The notes under the pieces were generated by a model. The model worked only from the letters and a program-made list of their open reading frames with translations. It did no database searches and had not been told where the DNA came from. Shown in pieces: positions 4,554 through 31,086 of a DNA stretch of 37,562 nt. This DNA is from Candidatus Heimdallarchaeota archaeon (GTDB lineage: Archaea > Asgardarchaeota > Heimdallarchaeia > Heimdallarchaeales > Heimdallarchaeaceae). Position 1 is the stretch's first letter. Every line of letters starts with the position of its first letter. The stretch spans positions 1 to 37,562 of the forward strand of contig JAEOSZ010000019.1 of NCBI GenBank assembly GCA_016840095.1. The letters are read 5' to 3'. The position numbers were made by a program, and so were the translations under genes.

Positions 4554-5837
4554 TTAGAGAATTTTTTCTCCTTCTTCTAAACTTAACATTGTAAAACCAC
4601 TTATCATCTTAGGATAGAAATCAGTGGCTTTTTGAGGCATTCTTTCATGATTCTTAGAAACTTTTAGAACTTCATCAGCAAGTGTTGGATTGAGGATGAA
4701 AGCAACTTTGTATTTACCATTATCAACTTCTTCAACAGCTTCATTCCACCATCTTTCGTAGAAAATATCATCATCTATATGAAGATCTTTTAATCCCATA
4801 ATTCCATGGAAAATCATATCTCTTAAGATAACTACATCAAGATTTTTGAATTCCTCACTAGCATCGCTTACATATCTGTTAATTGCTGAGATATCCTTCA
4901 TAATCAAAGAAACAGCTCTTCCATCTTGATACATAACAAATGAATGTTTATCCTTATTTTCTTCTAAGAATTTTGGTATTTCAGTTTTCATAATTTCGTT
5001 CATATCAAAGAACATCTTTAGTTCATTCATTTTTCCTTCAGAAACATCTTCTTTAGCTAAACAGCGATGAGTTGCTAAGATATTTAATCCTTCATCTTCA
5101 ACTGGAACAAGATATGTCATTCTGAATTCATATGCAGCATATTCATTTTGATCTGCAGCTTCGTTTCTTCGCATATTTCGATATGTGATAGCTGTTTCGT
5201 ATCTGTGGTGCCCATCTGCTATTACTAATTGTTGGTCTGCAAAGACATCTTGGATAACTTTGATTTTTGCTTGATCAGAAACTTTCCATATCCTGTTATA
5301 CACACCTAAATCGTCTTTAGCTTTAATTAATGGTTCTTCTTTAGCCACTTCATCAAATATCTCTATTGTTTTTTTATCAGGATCAGAGTAAAGTATAAAT
5401 CCAGTTTCTAATGTATGCCTTGTTGTCTTAAGCATATTCAGTCTATCTATTTTTGGACCTTTGTGTGTTTTCTCATGGGGAAGAACAATGTTTTCTTCAA
5501 ATGGATGGAGTCTTAGAGCTCCTATGAAGCCTTTTCTAATGTATTTCTTGCCAAATAATTCATATTCTTGAAAATAAACGTAAATTCCAGGTACCTCATC
5601 TTTTTCTAATATTCCTTCAGCTAACCATTGATCTAACCTTTGTTTTGCGATTTCATACCTGTTTTCTTCAATCGGTAAGGTGAGTCTACAATAGTTATAT
5701 TCTGACTGAGCATAGTATGCGTTTTGCATTTCTTCATCTATTTTGTCATACGGCTGGACTATTAGTTTCTCAATGTCCCCGGCCTTGGCAGTATATCTAA
5801 TTGCTTTGAATGGTTTAATGTCTACCATACTTATCAA
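4554..5837 (-). CDS. DUF1015 family protein
   Basis: IKPFKAIRY, QPYDKI, VLPHEKT, IADGHHRYETA, RMPQKATDFYPKM. Confidence 0.9.
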   Translation of the reverse strand: MISMVDIKPFKAIRYTAKAGDIEKLIVQPYDKIDEEMQNAYYAQSEYNYCRLTLPIEENRYEIAKQRLDQWLAEGILEKDEVPGIYVYFQEYELFGKKYIRKGFIGALRLHPFEENIVLPHEKTHKGPKIDRLNMLKTTRHTLETGFILYSDPDKKTIEIFDEVAKEEPLIKAKDDLGVYNRIWKVSDQAKIKVIQDVFADQQLVIADGHHRYETAITYRNMRRNEAADQNEYAAYEFRMTYLVPVEDEGLNILATHRCLAKEDVSEGKMNELKMFFDMNEIMKTEIPKFLEENKDKHSFVMYQDGRAVSLIMKDISAINRYVSDASEEFKNLDVVILRDMIFHGIMGLKDLHIDDDIFYERWWNEAVEEVDNGKYKVAFILNPTLADEVLKVSKNHERMPQKATDFYPKMISGFTMLSLEEGEKIL

Positions 5838-6025
5838 GCTTGCACATCAGAATCTCTATTTTAATTTTTTTGTTAGAAGATGAAAAGAAACATACTCATT
5901 CTTATGATAATGAACAAAGCATCAAAAAACTTCAAATGATATACCATTTTTCAACGATATACCTTTTTTATGATATATCCTTCGATATTCTTAATAACTC
6001 AACTAAGAGAAGTTATCTCTGAATA

Positions 6026-7495
6026 TTGGTGATAAAAATAGCAGCAATCGACAAATCTGAAAAACCACAACATTGTGGAAAGAAAATGCAGAGACTCTAC
6101 ATCCGGAAAGGAACCAAAAATAGAAAGTGGATACCTGTTGGATATTATTGCAACCTCTGTTCAAAAGTAATAAAAAACAGAGAACTGGTTTTATATCAAA
6201 GTATAGAGGAACTTCGTTCTAGACAAGAATTAGTAGATAATGTTACTAATAAGCAAAAAATTGTACTTGATATTGGTGATAAACTAACCAAAGTAGGATT
6301 TGCTGGTGAAAAAGAACCTAGGTTCATATTTGATACTAGATTATATATTGATCAAAACAACAAGTCATTCATTCAAAAAGCTGATAAAATAGAAACTAGC
6401 AGAAAAGTAAAGCATCAAAAATCCCTACTAGAAGGAAACGGAGAGCAAATTGTTAATTCTGATGATATGGTTCTATTTTTAACACATGTTTTTGAGAAAC
6501 TTGGAACAAAACCTCAAAACAAAAGCATCATGCTAATTGAAAAAAGCTACAAAAACAACTATGTAGAATATTACTATGGAAGGCATGAAGAAATCAAAGA
6601 AACCACTTTACCAGAAGAAATCAAAGAGAGGTTATCAAACAAACCAAAAATCGAAAAAGTCAATTATGATAAATACATAAAATATCCAAGAAGAGAATTA
6701 GCTTCGATCTTCTTTGATTACTTTGATATTGCAAGAATCTACTTCTCAAATGGAGAACTTCTTTCATTGTACTCAAATGCCATGGTTACTGGTTTAGTTG
6801 TAAACATAGGTGTGAGAACAACACGTATTATCCCAGTTTTTCAAGGATTTATTGTTACACAAGCAATTAGCACAAGAGAGTTTGGAACCGAAGATGTTGA
6901 GAAAAGAATTCATGAGCATCTAAACACCCAAAAAAATGTACAAGGAAATTCTGAACATATTAAGTATCTGATAGAAAAACAGTTGCGTTTGGCTTCGGAA
7001 GAATATTGTTACATTTCTCTTGATCCGTCGATTGAACAAGAAAAGTGGTCAGAAAATGCGAAACTGATTAAGCATATCAATTTGTTTAATGATAATTATG
7101 TTAAGCTTGATCAAATAAGGTATTTGGCAACAGAGATACTTTTTGAAAAAGAGGAAATGAGTACTTCAACAAGAAAAGGAAATCTTGTAGATGCAGCAAT
7201 AGAAACAATACAAAAAGCCAATATAGATCTAGAAAAGGATTTGTATGAAAACATTCTCTTAACTGGTGGTGGAACCTTTTATAAAGGATTCAAAGAGAGA
7301 TTTCAAACGGAATTAGAAACAAAAGCACCTGAAAGTCTTGAAGTTAATGTACGACTAAAACCTAATAGATTAATTTCATCTTGGATAGGAGGATCTATTC
7401 TATCAAATTTAAAAACGTTTGAAACTAAAAATCTGTGGGTTACAAAGGATGAATATGAAGAAAGAGGTTCATCTGCAGTAGATAGATGTATTTAG
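6026..7495 (+). CDS. Divergent actin-related protein with an N-terminal Zn-ribbon
   Basis: IVLDIGDKLTKVGFAGEKEPR, LLSLYS..TGLVVNIG, LYENILLTGG, SWIGGSILSNL and WVTKDEYEERG..VDRC align with actin motifs from end to end. Confidence 0.93.
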   Translation: MVIKIAAIDKSEKPQHCGKKMQRLYIRKGTKNRKWIPVGYYCNLCSKVIKNRELVLYQSIEELRSRQELVDNVTNKQKIVLDIGDKLTKVGFAGEKEPRFIFDTRLYIDQNNKSFIQKADKIETSRKVKHQKSLLEGNGEQIVNSDDMVLFLTHVFEKLGTKPQNKSIMLIEKSYKNNYVEYYYGRHEEIKETTLPEEIKERLSNKPKIEKVNYDKYIKYPRRELASIFFDYFDIARIYFSNGELLSLYSNAMVTGLVVNIGVRTTRIIPVFQGFIVTQAISTREFGTEDVEKRIHEHLNTQKNVQGNSEHIKYLIEKQLRLASEEYCYISLDPSIEQEKWSENAKLIKHINLFNDNYVKLDQIRYLATEILFEKEEMSTSTRKGNLVDAAIETIQKANIDLEKDLYENILLTGGGTFYKGFKERFQTELETKAPESLEVNVRLKPNRLISSWIGGSILSNLKTFETKNLWVTKDEYEERGSSAVDRCI

Positions 7496-8547
7496 TCTTT
7501 TATTCCCCATATCTCTTTTGTTTTTTCTTCTAGTTTTACTAGTTCTTCTAAAGAAGGTTTTTTCTTTCCAGCTTCAAATTTATGCACTTCATCTTGAACA
7601 TATTTGTTGAGAAGGGTAGTAACACCAAACTTCTTACCTTGTTCAACTAGATAACCATTCAGAAAGTCAATTTCAGTTCTTTTTCCACTCTCAATAGATT
7701 GAAGACTAGAAGATCTTAGATTCTTGTACTTTTTTCCAATCATCTTTAGAACTATTTGCTTGTAAATATGCTTGAAAGAGAATCCATGAAGTTCTTTCTT
7801 GGTTAAAGCAAGAGAATTTAGATTTAGATTATTTAATCTCTGCAATTGAACACCTTTAGCTTTACCTACTTCTACTCCTTCCGTCATAACTGTTAAAAAA
7901 GCAAGTCTTGTATATTTCCGCTCAAGCATTTTGCCTAGAGTCATACCACTAATTACACCAAATGAAGCAACTGATACATTGATCAATAATTTGGTAAATT
8001 TCTCATTCATAATATTCTCAGAATAAGAAGTTGGAACAGTTTTTGAGAGTAGATTAACAAGTTTATCGTCTATTGGTTTCTTTGGACCTTCTTTTCTACC
8101 TATTACCATTTCTCCAAGAGAGGTTTTTATTGCTTCTGCAGGCCCATTTCTAGATGCACCAAAGCTTACAACACATCCAAGCAATTTTCTTCCATCTATC
8201 TGCTCAGCTAGTTTCTCCTCGAACATACCATTAGTCATTGTAACTAGTGTGTAATCTTTGTTCAATTTAGATTCAATTCTATCATATGCATCTTGAATGT
8301 CAGTTAGTTTTGTAACAATAAATACAAGATCAAGTTCTTCTGGTAGATTTTCTATAGTTAGAACTGGCATAATATTATCTTTAACTATGTATTCTCCACT
8401 TATCCCTGTAACCTTTACACCCCGATTTTCTATCATGTCCAAGGTCTCTTGATGCTTGCACACAACATAAAGAGGAAAATCATTTTTGGCTAAATCTGCA
8501 GCAATTACAGTTCCAATAGCTCCAAGACCAACTAGTGCTGCTTTCAT
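7492..8547 (-). CDS. panE: 2-dehydropantoate 2-reductase (ketopantoate reductase family)
   Basis: GLGAIG Rossmann motif, KLLIN catalytic Lys, SSSLQS..GKRTEIDFLNG. Confidence 0.85.
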   Translation of the reverse strand: MKAALVGLGAIGTVIAADLAKNDFPLYVVCKHQETLDMIENRGVKVTGISGEYIVKDNIMPVLTIENLPEELDLVFIVTKLTDIQDAYDRIESKLNKDYTLVTMTNGMFEEKLAEQIDGRKLLGCVVSFGASRNGPAEAIKTSLGEMVIGRKEGPKKPIDDKLVNLLSKTVPTSYSENIMNEKFTKLLINVSVASFGVISGMTLGKMLERKYTRLAFLTVMTEGVEVGKAKGVQLQRLNNLNLNSLALTKKELHGFSFKHIYKQIVLKMIGKKYKNLRSSSLQSIESGKRTEIDFLNGYLVEQGKKFGVTTLLNKYVQDEVHKFEAGKKKPSLEELVKLEEKTKEIWGIKD

Positions 8548-8584
8548 AAAGTTTCAATCATTAGCTATGTATTAAAAGTTTCTA

Positions 8585-8610
8585 AAATAAAAGACAAAAA
8601 AATAAAAAAG
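8585..8610 (-). terminator. Oligo-T terminator after serA (similar tracts at ~4535, ~19430, ~29965, ~33320)
   Basis: Minus-strand TTTTTATTTTTTTGTCTTTTATTTT directly after the stop. Confidence 0.5.
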
Positions 8611-8616
8611 GGAGAG

Positions 8617-9540
8617 TTAAAGCTCTTTAAACGATTCAATAACTCTTTCAGCTGCTTGAACGCTAGCTCTCATATTTCCTTCCTTAGTTTGAGCTCCAAT
8701 ATGAGGACTAATAATAACATGTTCATGTTTTAGAAGAGGATTATCTGTATCAGGAGGTTCTTTTTCAAATACATCTGTACAGTAATATCCTAGTTGTCCA
8801 GATTCAAGTGCTTCAAATGCTTCTTGTTCGTTTACAATTCCTCCTCGAGCACAGTTTACAAGAACAGTTCCTGTTTTCATCAAGTTAAATTGATCTTTTC
8901 CAATCATGTTTTTTGTTTCATCTGTTAATGGAAGATGCAAACTTATATAATCTGCATTTTGGAGAATTTCTTCCATTGAACCCTTCATGTCAATAACAGG
9001 ATTTTCTGGAGCAAATTTATCGTATCCAATGGCATTCATTCCAAGAGCTTTACATTTTACAGCCAAACTTGTTCCTATTCTTCCAGTTCCAATTAATCCA
9101 AGTGTTTTACCATCTATTTCTCTTGAAAATAGTTCTTTCTTCATAGATTTGAATTTAGAGGGATCACCTTTTATTTCACATGTTCCCTTGACAACATCTC
9201 TTGTTGAAGCAAGTATCATTGTTAAAGCTAATTCAGCTACAGAATTTGTAGTGGCTGCAGGAGTATTCACAACTTTTATTCCTCTTGCCATTGTAGTTTC
9301 AAGATCAATATTATCTAGACCAACACCAGCTCTTCCTATAACTTTTAGGTTTACAGCTTTCTCTAGAAGATCTCCTCTAACTTTTGTTGCTGATCTAACA
9401 ATAATTGCATCATATTCTCCAATTATTTGGGGTAGTTCCTCTTTGGGTATGTCCCATCCAACTTTCACTTCAAATCCAGCTTCTTCTAAAATACCGATGA
9501 CTTTCTCATTTAGTTTATCAGATAGAATTACTTTTGGCAT
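8617..9540 (-). CDS. serA: D-3-phosphoglycerate dehydrogenase, short form without ACT domain
   Basis: IVRSATKV, GRAGVGLDNID, GTGRIG, NCARGG, DVFEKEP, SPHIGAQT; adjacent to a class V aminotransferase. Confidence 0.85.
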   Translation of the reverse strand: MPKVILSDKLNEKVIGILEEAGFEVKVGWDIPKEELPQIIGEYDAIIVRSATKVRGDLLEKAVNLKVIGRAGVGLDNIDLETTMARGIKVVNTPAATTNSVAELALTMILASTRDVVKGTCEIKGDPSKFKSMKKELFSREIDGKTLGLIGTGRIGTSLAVKCKALGMNAIGYDKFAPENPVIDMKGSMEEILQNADYISLHLPLTDETKNMIGKDQFNLMKTGTVLVNCARGGIVNEQEAFEALESGQLGYYCTDVFEKEPPDTDNPLLKHEHVIISPHIGAQTKEGNMRASVQAAERVIESFKEL

Positions 9541-9550
9541 TTTTTATCAC

Positions 9551-10630
9551 CTATAGTCCCCAAATTTCTTCAATAGCACTTAATAGTTCTTTCAAACCTT
9601 CTAGAGTGTGATCGCCCATGTGACCAATTCTAAAGTTCTTTCCCTTGAATGGTCCATAACCATTTGCTATTACTAAACCTTTTTCTCCTAAAGCTTTGTT
9701 TAGAGCATCGACATCCTTGTTCATTACTCTATTGTCAACTGTTGTTACTGTTACAGATCTATAACCTTCTTCAGCAAAAAGACCAAAACCATGTTTTAGA
9801 GCCCATTCGTGTGTATAGTCAGCCATTTCTTTATGTCGTTTATAGATATTTTCTGCTCCTTCTGCTAACATTTCCTTAAGTTTGTAATCTAATGAAAATA
9901 ATAAGGAGATATTTGGTGTTGAAGGTGTCTGTTTCTTTTTTGCATAGTATCCAAGTATTTCTTCTAGATTAATATATAGTCCTTTATCAGGAACTTCTTT
10001 TGCTCTGTCTAATGCAGCTTGAGATACAATTCCTACTGCAAGTCCTGGAGATATTGCAAAACATTTCTGTGTTGATGCAAATACTAAATCTGTTCCCCAT
10101 TCATCTGGCAATAACATATCGCCTGCCATTGCAGACACAGCATCTACTACCAATAGTGTTTCTGGGTAGTTTTTCAACAATTCACCTATTGCTTTAAGAT
10201 CACATTTTACTCCAGTACTGGTTTCGTTATAACAAACTGCTACAACGTCATAAGAGTCAGTTTCAACTTTTTCCTTTATCATGTCTACAGTTACAGCTTT
10301 TCCCCACTCAACTTCAAATAGTTCTGCTTCCTTTCCACTTTGTTTAATTGCTTTATGCATTCTTGAGGAAAAAGAACCATTGACACAACAGAGTGCTTTC
10401 TTATCTGGTCTAACTAAGTTTCTTGCTGTAATATCCATGAACAGTGTTCCTGAAGCTGTTAAGACTAACACATGTTGTTCAGTTCTGAAGAATTCTCTTA
10501 ATTGAGTTAAAACGCTATCATATAGCTCTGTGAAATCTTTACTTCTATGTCCAAACAGAGGTTTTGCTTGTTGTTTTAATACTTCTTCTTTAACCTCTGT
10601 AGGTCCAGGTATCCATAATTTTTTGTGCAT
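9551..10630 (-). CDS. Class V PLP aminotransferase (serine-pyruvate / archaeal phosphoserine aminotransferase type)
   Basis: IPGPTEV, GHRS, NETSTG, VDAVSA, STQKC (PLP Lys), FRIGHMG; 10 nt from serA. Confidence 0.9.
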   Translation of the reverse strand: MHKKLWIPGPTEVKEEVLKQQAKPLFGHRSKDFTELYDSVLTQLREFFRTEQHVLVLTASGTLFMDITARNLVRPDKKALCCVNGSFSSRMHKAIKQSGKEAELFEVEWGKAVTVDMIKEKVETDSYDVVAVCYNETSTGVKCDLKAIGELLKNYPETLLVVDAVSAMAGDMLLPDEWGTDLVFASTQKCFAISPGLAVGIVSQAALDRAKEVPDKGLYINLEEILGYYAKKKQTPSTPNISLLFSLDYKLKEMLAEGAENIYKRHKEMADYTHEWALKHGFGLFAEEGYRSVTVTTVDNRVMNKDVDALNKALGEKGLVIANGYGPFKGKNFRIGHMGDHTLEGLKELLSAIEEIWGL

Positions 10631-11409: not shown

Positions 11410-13068
11410 TTGGAATTGAGTGTGATGGCTATTCAAGATAAAGACAAACAGAAGGAAGCCTTAGAAAAAACACTTCAAAAGTTCTCAGAATTACTACCTT
11501 CTGTTAATCCTGAAGTATCACCTGCTGAAAGAGCATTAGTTATTATTGATGGAACAGCTAAATCTAAAACAGCTGTTCTATGTGCAGGAGAACTAAACAG
11601 GCATTTTGGAACCAAAATTGACGTTATTTGTTTCTATACTGAACAACCTCCAATAAAAATAAAAGCATCTAAAGAAAGCTATGAAGATTCTCTGGCTTTT
11701 GCTTATGAGCACCTGAAAAGCGAGGATTTCGAGATTAAAGGTGAAGTTGTTGAGAATCTAGAGAACCTAAGATCTATACTTGATAATGTGATTAACACAT
11801 CAGAATATGATATTATAATAGTCCCATCCTCATTTATCGGACTTAAAGAGGTTAAAGTTGAAACAAATGGTGAAGATGATACAGAAGCAAGTATAACGGT
11901 TTTAGGAAGTTTATTTGACTACCTATTAGAAGACGTTAAAGAGATACCTGTCCTCTTGATTGAAAGCGAAAAGATTAATCTTGATTTATTGTGGAGGAAT
12001 ATCTGTTTATTCTTTACCAATACTATACAGTTAAACTATCTTATAGAAAAAGCGATTAAGTATAGTCTGAAGAAATCAGAGATTCATTGTCTGATCAATA
12101 TTGATCCCAGTTATCATGACGATAAAAGTGAAGATGAAATTGAAGCTCTTGTTAAAAAATCTAAAGAGGATTTAGAGAGATTCGAAAGAGCAAATTCAGA
12201 GGTTTTCAGAGAAGCTTCACGATATGTTGATTCGCACGTTCTTTCTACAGATAAAATCGATGTCTTCAAAAACGAATTAGCAACTTTTGGGAAAGATACT
12301 GGTATTATTATGATTTACATGCCTACTAAACATACAAGCCTTTATGGTTTCTTTACAGACTTACTAGAAGATCCAGAAATCTCTATGCCTATTCTTATAG
12401 CTAAAAGAAAAATAGTTGTTAAGAAAGAAGAAGTCAAAGAAGAAGAAGGAGACAAAGTGTCCGAAGAAAAAGAAGAAGTAAAAGAAATTCCAAAAGAAGA
12501 AGAGAAAGAAGAGGAAAAAATAGTCATAGATGAATCCTTAAAAGAATCAATCAAAGAAGAAGTGAAAAAGGATATCTTGGGAATAACTGATAAGGAAAAG
12601 GAAGAAGAAATTCCAAAGGAAGAAGAGAAAGAAGCTAAGAAAGTTAAAGAAGTTAAAGAACTTAAAGAAAAGGATAAAGAAGAGGAGGAAGAGGAAATGA
12701 CAGAAATGGACGAAATCAAAGAAGAAGTGAAAGAAGAAGTCATTGAAGAGATTAAAAAAGAAGTCGTCAAAGAAGTTAAAGCTGAACCCAAGAAAGAAGT
12801 CAAGAAAGAAGTAAGTAAGGAACTTAAGTCTGAAGAGAGTATGGAAGAGCTGAAAGAGACGATTATTGAAGAAATCAAAGAAGAGATCAAAGAAGAAATT
12901 AAGTATGAATTGAAAAAGGATCTCAAAGAACCCAAGAAAGAATTGAAAGAAAAAGTCATGGAAGAAATCAAAGAAATCAAAGTTCCAGATGAAGAAGTGG
13001 AAGAAGAAATTTCTGAAGAGGAAAAAGAAGAGGAAGAAGCGGTAGTTTCTAGAAATGACTTTGAATAA
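11410..13068 (+). CDS. Tandem universal-stress-protein (USP)-like domains plus a ~220-aa Glu/Lys-rich tail
   Basis: ALVIIDGTAKS..A, YDIIIVP..G, LGSLFDYLL..IPVLLI; the second domain ends MPILIA. The true start may be the ATG at 11425. Confidence 0.7.
   Translation: MELSVMAIQDKDKQKEALEKTLQKFSELLPSVNPEVSPAERALVIIDGTAKSKTAVLCAGELNRHFGTKIDVICFYTEQPPIKIKASKESYEDSLAFAYEHLKSEDFEIKGEVVENLENLRSILDNVINTSEYDIIIVPSSFIGLKEVKVETNGEDDTEASITVLGSLFDYLLEDVKEIPVLLIESEKINLDLLWRNICLFFTNTIQLNYLIEKAIKYSLKKSEIHCLINIDPSYHDDKSEDEIEALVKKSKEDLERFERANSEVFREASRYVDSHVLSTDKIDVFKNELATFGKDTGIIMIYMPTKHTSLYGFFTDLLEDPEISMPILIAKRKIVVKKEEVKEEEGDKVSEEKEEVKEIPKEEEKEEEKIVIDESLKESIKEEVKKDILGITDKEKEEEIPKEEEKEAKKVKEVKELKEKDKEEEEEEMTEMDEIKEEVKEEVIEEIKKEVVKEVKAEPKKEVKKEVSKELKSEESMEELKETIIEEIKEEIKEEIKYELKKDLKEPKKELKEKVMEEIKEIKVPDEEVEEEISEEEKEEEEAVVSRNDFE
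12484..12634 (+). repeat. 28-nt intragenic direct repeat encoding EIPKEEEKE, two copies
   Basis: GAAATTCCAAA(A/G)GAAGAAGAGAAAGAAG at 12484 and 12607, one mismatch. Confidence 0.7.
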
Positions 13069-29991: not shown

Positions 29992-31086
29992 TTACTTCTT
30001 TTTCTTCATAAATCGTGGATCGATTTCTTCTCTTTGAGAAGCATCTTGATAGTTTTCTTTAGCTTGTTCTTTTGCTTCTTCAAGAGTTTCGTCAGAATGA
30101 CATATCCATCTCAAGTGAGTAGAAGCTGGTTTTCCGCACCATGGACAGAATAGATCATCTAAATATTCTATAATTCTGTTATGAGCAGATAAATTCCTTC
30201 TATGTTTTCCTCTCTCCTCGATAATTGGTTTTGTAAGTATCTCTGCTGCTTTCTTCTTTCCAACTGAAACCGCTTTTTTCACTGTTTCTATTTCGTCTTT
30301 TGGAATTTCTATGCTATATCCTTCTTTTGAGTCACCTATAACTTCTACAGGAATCCCTTCTGTTAAAATTGCTTCTTGCTCATCTCTAGGTACTTTCTTA
30401 ATTTGGGATACGAATTTACTAGCCTCATCTTTACCCATATCTTGTTCAACGATTTTCTCATAGGTACTTTTCTGTAAACTAGGATCACTAATTGTTGATA
30501 ATCTTGAAAGAATCCTTTCTGGTATTCTCTCATCCGCAGGTTTACCTAACTCTTCAGAAATAATATCTGGAGCAACGCTAGCAGCTTCTAACCATAATCG
30601 TAAAGTGTTAGATTTAATATGAATCTTTGCACAAATCTCATCAATTTTTTCTTCAGTTGGTATTAATGAAAGGTTTCTAGATTTTTTCCTTTCAATACTG
30701 TTAATAATATTTGCAAGACTTTTAGGAGTTTGAACAATACCTTCACTTCTAAAGACCTCCATAACTCCTCTACCTTTCTCAATCATGTAAAGGTCTTTTC
30801 GATGAATATTTTCTATTAAAGATTCTATTCTTTGTTGACTCTCATCAATCTCTTTTACAATTGCATATATCTTGTTCAATCCTGCAAATTGTGCAGCTCT
30901 CCATCTTCTTTCTCCAGCAATTATCTGATAAGATTCATCTCCAGTTTGTCTGACTAAAATAGGATTTAGCAGATCATATGCTTTAATTGAATTAGCCAGT
31001 TCTTCAATAGCATCTTTATCGAAGGTTTCTCTTGGCTGAAAAGGGCTTGGACTTATTTTTTCTACAGGAATTTGCACGATTTCCAT
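29992..31086 (-). CDS. parB: ParB/Spo0J-family protein with a C-terminal Cys/His motif
   Basis: PSPFQPRETFD, LANSIK, PILVR, IIAGERRWRAA, ENIHRKDL. Confidence 0.85.
   Translation of the reverse strand: MEIVQIPVEKISPSPFQPRETFDKDAIEELANSIKAYDLLNPILVRQTGDESYQIIAGERRWRAAQFAGLNKIYAIVKEIDESQQRIESLIENIHRKDLYMIEKGRGVMEVFRSEGIVQTPKSLANIINSIERKKSRNLSLIPTEEKIDEICAKIHIKSNTLRLWLEAASVAPDIISEELGKPADERIPERILSRLSTISDPSLQKSTYEKIVEQDMGKDEASKFVSQIKKVPRDEQEAILTEGIPVEVIGDSKEGYSIEIPKDEIETVKKAVSVGKKKAAEILTKPIIEERGKHRRNLSAHNRIIEYLDDLFCPWCGKPASTHLRWICHSDETLEEAKEQAKENYQDASQREEIDPRFMKKKK

Follow-up and report, generated by a model that had tools for sequence, protein, structure and literature searches.

The fusion gene and its neighbourhood

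The window, i.e. the whole stretch of 37,562 nucleotides that was analysed, belongs to the genome of a Heimdallarchaeota archaeon (G000). On its plus strand, positions 6029 to 7495 encode a 488-aa protein in which a zinc-ribbon-type module is fused to an actin fold. Three copies of a 12-bp palindromic box and a TATA-like element precede the gene (see below). The ORF starts with GTG at 6029, for which TTG at 6026 is an alternative, and runs to 7495 without interruption. Residues are counted here from the GTG, the start on record, and their numbers are one less than in the first-pass annotation, which used the TTG. The motif H16, C17, C42, C45 that it had placed ahead of the actin fold is present at precisely these positions and reads H15, C16, C41, C44 in the numbering from 6029.

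A protein search yielded 32 further full-length proteins of 471-519 residues that align over their whole length at 35-62% identity. The named ones among these orthologues are labelled Heimdallarchaeota or Heimdallarchaeaceae. Of 400 genomes sampled from the phylum, 21 contain the head at E <1e-18: the present genome, 17 of the 24 other members of its genus, two from a sister genus and one from a sister family. The annotated fusion thus recurs in related genomes, and the whole-length alignments together with the 21 separate genomes rule out an assembly chimera. A translation start downstream of the Cys motif is ruled out as well. Three database entries begin 3′ of the His-Cys codons; at three genome loci of this type (L006, L007 and L015) the pair is encoded in frame upstream, and late starts of this kind are miscalls there. 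At L006 and L015 (~1500), no ATG, GTG or TTG is located ahead of the His-Cys pair, and the likely start is an ATT codon following a purine-rich run.

In the genus, the fusion gene lies between a divergent DUF1015 gene and a convergent apbA gene. A minus-strand run comprises genes for an aminotransferase class V (9551-10630), a D-2-hydroxyacid dehydrogenase (8617-9540), a ketopantoate reductase-like protein (7492-8547) and DUF1015 (4554-5837). This run (4554-10630) resembles a serC-serA operon, harbours the actin gene in opposite direction and is contiguous in relatives that lack the gene. As to the earlier proposal of an undescribed system, a literature search, which covered mainly open-access papers, found no description of the fusion. 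The system itself has to be reduced to a one-gene unit with neither partner nor cytoskeletal genes in its neighbourhood. Elsewhere, the window encodes an 80-aa acyl-carrier-like protein (PF00550; 4292-4534) after a luciferase-like oxidoreductase, a 552-aa ORF without Pfam match (11410-13068), with a strong purine skew around 12001-13000, and a 364-aa protein that has a ParB domain at its N-terminus (29992-31086). At L114 (G054:C1:729254-730246), the intact DUF1015 gene is closely followed by a partial second copy that contains an internal TAG.

Zinc-ribbon head and degenerate actin body

Alignments and a structural model (pLDDT 90) delimit the head to residues 13-49 (6065-6175, plus strand). 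The ~75-aa domain originally assigned to this region is a real module, but the domain proper covers only residues ~13-49. Residues 50-74 (6176-6250, plus strand) form a variable helical linker with 32% mean identity, modelled as two helices with low confidence at residues 62-72. As had been remarked, the N-terminus is rich in basic residues, with 13 K/R versus 2 D/E among the first 50. A beta-ribbon with a long basic beta-hairpin is predicted. H15, C16, C41 and C44 are invariant, and so are Y24, I25, R26, G28, T29, R32, W34 and G38 in the hairpin. The head is the best-conserved part of the protein: Mean identity amounts to 72% for residues 13-46 compared to 49% for the actin body, whose best 34-residue window does not exceed 65%. 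Likewise, pN is 0.15 in the head and 0.31 in the body, at a pS that is saturated near 0.7 in both (0.67 in the body). The conventional actin encoded in the same genome lacks such a domain, in line with what had been said of conventional actins.

A profile search for the head among 1.8 billion proteins yielded ~25 distant homologues of 37-220 residues, mostly stand-alone proteins. Heads fused to a BtrH/C39-like domain occur as well (see below), and the stand-alone and otherwise fused relatives envisaged earlier do exist. In the distant homologues, the first knuckle is HC, CC or CxxC and the second one always CxxC. Because HC, CC and CxxC interchange, these residues are likely to be metal ligands, and we infer that H15, C16, C41 and C44 coordinate zinc. 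What defines a zinc-ribbon fold, two knuckles with four Cys/His ligands on beta-hairpins, was found here with H, C, C and C invariant in the alignment. The head had no Pfam or PHROGs match at E 0.05, and 3 of 38 head homologues matched PF13408 at E 0.024 or worse. Its fold neighbours are weak and include GRF fingers, an MBD domain, TFIIS, serine-integrase zinc domains and MqsA. The best structure match reached Z 3.4 (rmsd 2.9, 46 aligned) and the best Foldseek match E 0.38. The head has some resemblance to Cren7 and may be kin to it; Cren7 is absent among the structure and fold matches listed for the head. The head can be regarded as an unnamed domain of 35 residues that is predicted to bind DNA.

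Further ribbons were observed in other contexts. P0127, P0135, P0137 and P0150 contain two tandem copies each. P0136, a distant stand-alone ribbon (L024:620-2365), is encoded in a group of short genes without annotation, close to a histone-fold gene; this DNA could be that of a virus or plasmid. A region in an archaeal response-regulator cluster resembles the head in shape (TM 0.69 over 41 residues) and could be an output domain.

The body (residues 75-488; 6251-7492, plus strand) is PF00022 actin with E 1.8e-60 and 205 bits at a cut-off of 27. A model with pLDDT 85 predicts the four-subdomain actin fold, and Foldseek matches have E ~1e-32 and, depending on the target, TM 0.81-0.87. The nearest PDB matches are a Heimdall actin (9wc4 'HC1 actin'), eukaryotic actins and Arp1. 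Residue numbers of actin, assigned by motif, were used for a tally over 33 orthologues. D11, G13, K18, G20, G156, G301, G302 and G308 are kept in 32-33 of them. By contrast, S14, G15, Q137, D154, D157, G158 and V159 are replaced: Q137 is kept in one orthologue, D154 and D157 in none. H161 is substituted by R in all 33 and A138 by E or D. The D-loop/subdomain 2 region is 5-8 residues shorter than in conventional actins and has 33% internal identity, and subdomain 1 carries a family-specific helical insertion of ~40 residues (6545-6688, plus strand) that is longer in the P0162 branch. Within the body, two parts are better conserved: the segment at the C-terminus (63.5%) and, in subdomain 1, the first strands (60.5%).

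Since catalytic residues and the D-loop are lost, weak or no hydrolysis and no normal filament are predicted. The body is probably a pseudo-ATPase without assembly into ordinary filaments, and its adenine pocket is possibly still usable. It is under purifying selection, as the above pN and pS values show, and has stayed intact long-term at a fixed locus. In an unrooted actin tree of 42 rows, a limited sampling without nuclear ARPs or MreB, 18 head-bearing bodies including the distant P0162 branch group together beyond a 100/100 branch, apart from the genome's own conventional actin, a separate gene on contig C119. Head-bearing genomes also encode one or two conventional actins. Judged by its sequence, the protein belongs to the actin family but is no conventional actin.

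Head and boxes are strictly associated

Box 1 (5936-5947) is the best match to the consensus ATGRTATAYCAT and attains the full possible score of 17.4. Box 2 (5954-5965, score 15.5) follows box 1 at a distance of 18 nt and box 3 (5970-5981, score 16.0) follows box 2 at 16 nt; the end of box 3 is 8 nt upstream of the TATA-like element. Box 1 is kept in 17 of 17 training orthologue promoters. The 18- and 16-nt spacing is found in 16 of these, and the remaining one has a degenerate box at 17 nt. Promoter conservation predicts the probable TATA box of the fusion gene at 5990-5997 (plus strand): TTTA(A/T)(T/A)AA is present at +9 to +16 after box 3 in 18 orthologue promoters. At scores ≥12, the triple box is the sole cluster in the 3.44-Mb genome, compared to 0-1 pairs in simulated genomes. 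The 60 single sites are fewer than the 70-104 counted in simulated sequence. A scan of G000 at scores ≥14.5 revealed no wider regulon: Three of its 16 sites are the boxes described here, 11 are located inside ORFs and two are single intergenic sites. One single intergenic box (G000:C163:45195, score 16.0) between divergent genes could be due to chance or a second target. In G005 and G007, a 36-nt coding repeat (L102:1786-1870) causes chance box-like matches.

The matrix had been trained on one genus. It detected 2-5 boxes ahead of every held-out head-bearing gene, at differing spacings and behind different upstream neighbours. In the sister genus, at P0035 and at the non-actin fusions, boxes flank the promoter on both sides, and one covers the start codon. 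Still other box spacings are seen at the divergent actin fusions L021, L061 and L082. The P0162-type fusion at L021 (1430-2450) is split by a frameshift and has lost the phosphate-1 region, its boxes are present, and like L022 it stems from metagenome JGI 3300041085. The distant stand-alone ribbons have no such boxes upstream, which speaks neither for nor against the link between head and boxes, since their hairpin differs from that of the head.

The same head is found on an unrelated domain of ~390 residues in P0126, P0163 and relatives (two clusters, 8 members). The nearest named look-alikes of this domain, BtrH_N and C39 peptidase-like families (0.86-0.87), are to be taken as a lead. The heads of these fusions are identical to Heimdall heads in 21-24 of 30 residues. 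Boxes are present at five of five head-BtrH-like loci (L022, L060, L083, L084 and L123), which have different upstream genes; each has two strong boxes, and four have two weaker ones besides. At three BtrH-like loci, none of 3000 shuffles reached the box score. For comparison, one head-less homologue of the BtrH-like domain (44% identity) was found, and no box lies ahead of its gene. Downstream of the head-BtrH-like gene lie a GyrI-like and a GNAT gene. At L060 (2673-6051) and L083 (7421-10750), an operon of head-BtrH-like gene, GyrI-like gene, GNAT acetyltransferase gene and a gene for a leucine-rich-repeat protein resembles a small-molecule response unit. A host from the Thorarchaeia is weakly suggested; one gene neighbouring the BtrH-like fusion is 58% identical to proteins named Thorarchaeia. 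A plasmid search with the BtrH-like body gave no match. The non-actin fusions stem from one small clade and may go back to a single event. Because the head also occurs on a non-actin protein, its distribution marks it as a portable regulator domain and not as an ARP-style extension.

Among 83 genomes of the class, the box pair was found in 20 of 21 with and in 5 of 62 without a head, counts that overstate the association, as kin are not independent. One of the five head-less genomes is G008 (see below), and in three others that were read the pairs are located inside ORFs or have poor scores. With a stricter box pattern applied to 400 genomes, 8 of 9 matches lie ahead of the gene. Head and boxes are strictly associated.

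Natural deletions have occurred at the locus. In G009, G020 and G024, apbA directly precedes DUF1015; the fusion gene and the boxes are absent, and DUF1015 and its promoter remain. This means, DUF1015 does not need the boxes. One deletion can take gene and promoter together. In G008, the fusion gene is deleted and all three boxes are retained. This genome is 96% identical to G018, and the boxes are conserved at 33 of 36 positions compared to 51 of 56 in the flank. Because the flank is as conserved as the boxes, G008 is uninformative, neither for nor against, and by this comparison it is a recent deletion relic. On a DUF1015 tree, the four gene-less genomes adjoin different gene-bearing relatives, and for this reason the losses, at least four within one genus, look separate.

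Two other roles of the boxes are disfavoured. A regulation of the divergent DUF1015 gene does not agree with their occurrence behind other neighbours and their absence where the fusion gene is deleted but DUF1015 stays. RNA hairpins do not agree with a location upstream of the TATA box, and the usual form of the box would fold with an A-C mismatch.

A proposed autoregulator and its known counterparts

With a probability of roughly 0.65, the protein is an autoregulated DNA-binding regulator whose head binds the operator boxes. H15, C16, C41 and C44 would bind one zinc and hold the long basic beta-hairpin, and two heads would read one 12-bp palindrome, one per half-site. Like that of serine-integrase zinc domains, the hairpin would probably insert into the major groove, and the box array would let the protein set its own transcription. 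In the present genus, box 3 with its end 8 nt before the TATA box would occupy the position of an archaeal activator. In other lineages, boxes on both sides of the promoter, one of them over the start codon, would repress. Both geometries would be accounted for by a concentration-dependent switch like that of Ss-LrpB. Box geometry in the present genus points to activation or a switch, and the term 'self-limiting' would be too narrow. The initial suggestion of a nucleic-acid- or partner-binding module tethered to an actin is hereby narrowed: Nucleic-acid binding is most likely, specifically sequence-specific binding of dsDNA at the own promoter.

The weakest step of the proposal concerns the pseudo-ATPase actin body, which would be the sensor or oligomerisation part and would probably have retained the binding of an adenine nucleotide or of an actin-binding partner. 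With actin in this protein and a BtrH-like domain in others, the C-terminal part might be an interchangeable sensor or effector. It is a tentative idea that a eukaryote-type actin acts as sensor of a transcription regulator, with nucleotide state or actin-binding partners controlling DNA occupancy. If true, this would be a prokaryotic, independently evolved link between an actin system and gene regulation.

What counts against autoregulation is that the non-actin fusions may be a single event and that promoter and head are direct neighbours, which can be inherited, captured or deleted jointly. Such physical linkage would account for joint gain and loss if the boxes were bound by a transcription factor encoded elsewhere and the head, which binds protein, RNA or non-specific DNA, merely travelled with the promoter. 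G008 with its boxes but without the gene agrees with this, as do those head neighbours, GRF fingers and TFIIS-type ribbons among them, that do not bind operators, although these matches are weak (Z 2.4-3.4). However, such a factor would need a single target in G000 and the same specificity in distant lineages, box sequences persist at varying spacings and beside varying neighbours, and the conservation peak at the exposed basic hairpin would be otherwise unexplained. An outside factor is considered unlikely. The same low probability is given to an active actin body that caps, nucleates or inhibits conventional actin in the manner of an ARP, or serves as a scaffold tethered to chromatin; the head would then do no more than limit its dose or fix it at a single chromosomal site. 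The two better-conserved parts of the body, the one or two conventional actins in the same genomes and the lack of other visible regulation targets would suit such a role, which is compatible with binding at the own promoter. Against it stand the move of head and boxes to a non-actin body, the repeated gene losses in one genus, which are atypical of a core cytoskeletal part, and the lack of cytoskeletal genes nearby.

It is highly improbable that promoter and head constitute a cassette, selfish or of viral origin, by which a decaying actin paralogue was captured, and that the fusion has no host function. A patchy distribution over several loci with repeated clean loss, the insertion against the direction of the serC-serA-apbA-DUF1015 run, distant stand-alone homologues on short contigs of unannotated genes and the frameshifted fusion copy would be expected of such a cassette. 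Yet, the body is under purifying selection and intact long-term at a fixed locus, and each genome has one copy without adjoining integrase or repeats. On viral contigs, no close relative was found.

If confirmed, autoregulation by the head would be the first function for an Asgard actin paralogue, and this on DNA rather than in the cytoskeleton. Asgard archaea are the closest microbial relatives of eukaryotes, and the finding would bear on the reuse of the actin fold for nuclear jobs. Eukaryotic ARPs, however, probably do not descend from the fusion clade, which is narrow. Furthermore, an unnamed 35-residue domain would be paired with a predicted 12-bp operator.

With conventional actins and Lokiactin, the protein shares the actin fold over the whole body at ~25-30% identity, D11, G13, K18, G156, G301, G302 and the C-terminal motif. 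It differs from them by the N-terminal zinc ribbon, the shortened D-loop, the 40-residue insertion, the replacement of Q137, D154, D157, G158 and H161 and its own long-branched group (100/100). The nuclear ARPs Arp4, Arp5, Arp6 and Arp8 are non-polymerising actin folds with insertions that act on DNA or chromatin as subunits of remodelling complexes. To our knowledge, they have no such ribbon and do not read operators, and they are absent from the best 60 sequence and best 50 fold matches. The comparison with Arp5/Arp8 drawn in the first-pass annotation is an analogy at most: Among solved structures, conventional actins and Arp1 are the nearest, partner genes are lacking in the neighbourhood, and a non-actin protein carries the head too. 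In a broad sense, the fusion is comparable to the Asgard ARPs, being an additional, divergent paralogue of actin whose patchy occurrence reflects gains and losses; the part of the Asgard ARP account drawn on here describes no zinc ribbon, DNA binding or promoter boxes (PMC9834061).

In large serine integrases, a zinc ribbon (PF13408) presents a zinc-nucleated beta-hairpin that reads the major groove (PMC3783163). The likeness of the head to it is weak (Atlas TM 0.60-0.61, besides the PF13408 hits mentioned above): There is no significant sequence or structure match, the second ligand pair is spaced differently and recombinase domains are lacking. The sites of archaeal activators precede the BRE by a few bases. 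For Ss-LrpB, the control region of its own gene contains three sites, of which the last is just upstream of BRE/TATA, and they confer positive and then negative autoregulation (PMC2995911). Here, too, three boxes are located in the own control region, the last one a few bases before a TATA-like element. The protein folds are unrelated, and the boxes are spaced by 18 and 16 nt.

The ROK repressors NagC, Mlc and XylR combine an N-terminal DNA-binding domain with a catalytically dead domain of the actin/hexokinase/Hsp70 superfamily and use palindromic operators. The fusion is not a member of this family: It has a zinc ribbon instead of a winged helix and a true actin-family body instead of a sugar-kinase one, and Pfam and NCBIfam gave no ROK or winged-helix match. 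The likeness lies in the architecture and the predicted way of working, a putative DNA-binding head, a probably dead superfamily domain and palindromes. As in autoregulated one-component regulators, a conserved palindromic predicted operator is located in the own promoter and accompanies the putative DNA-binding domain.
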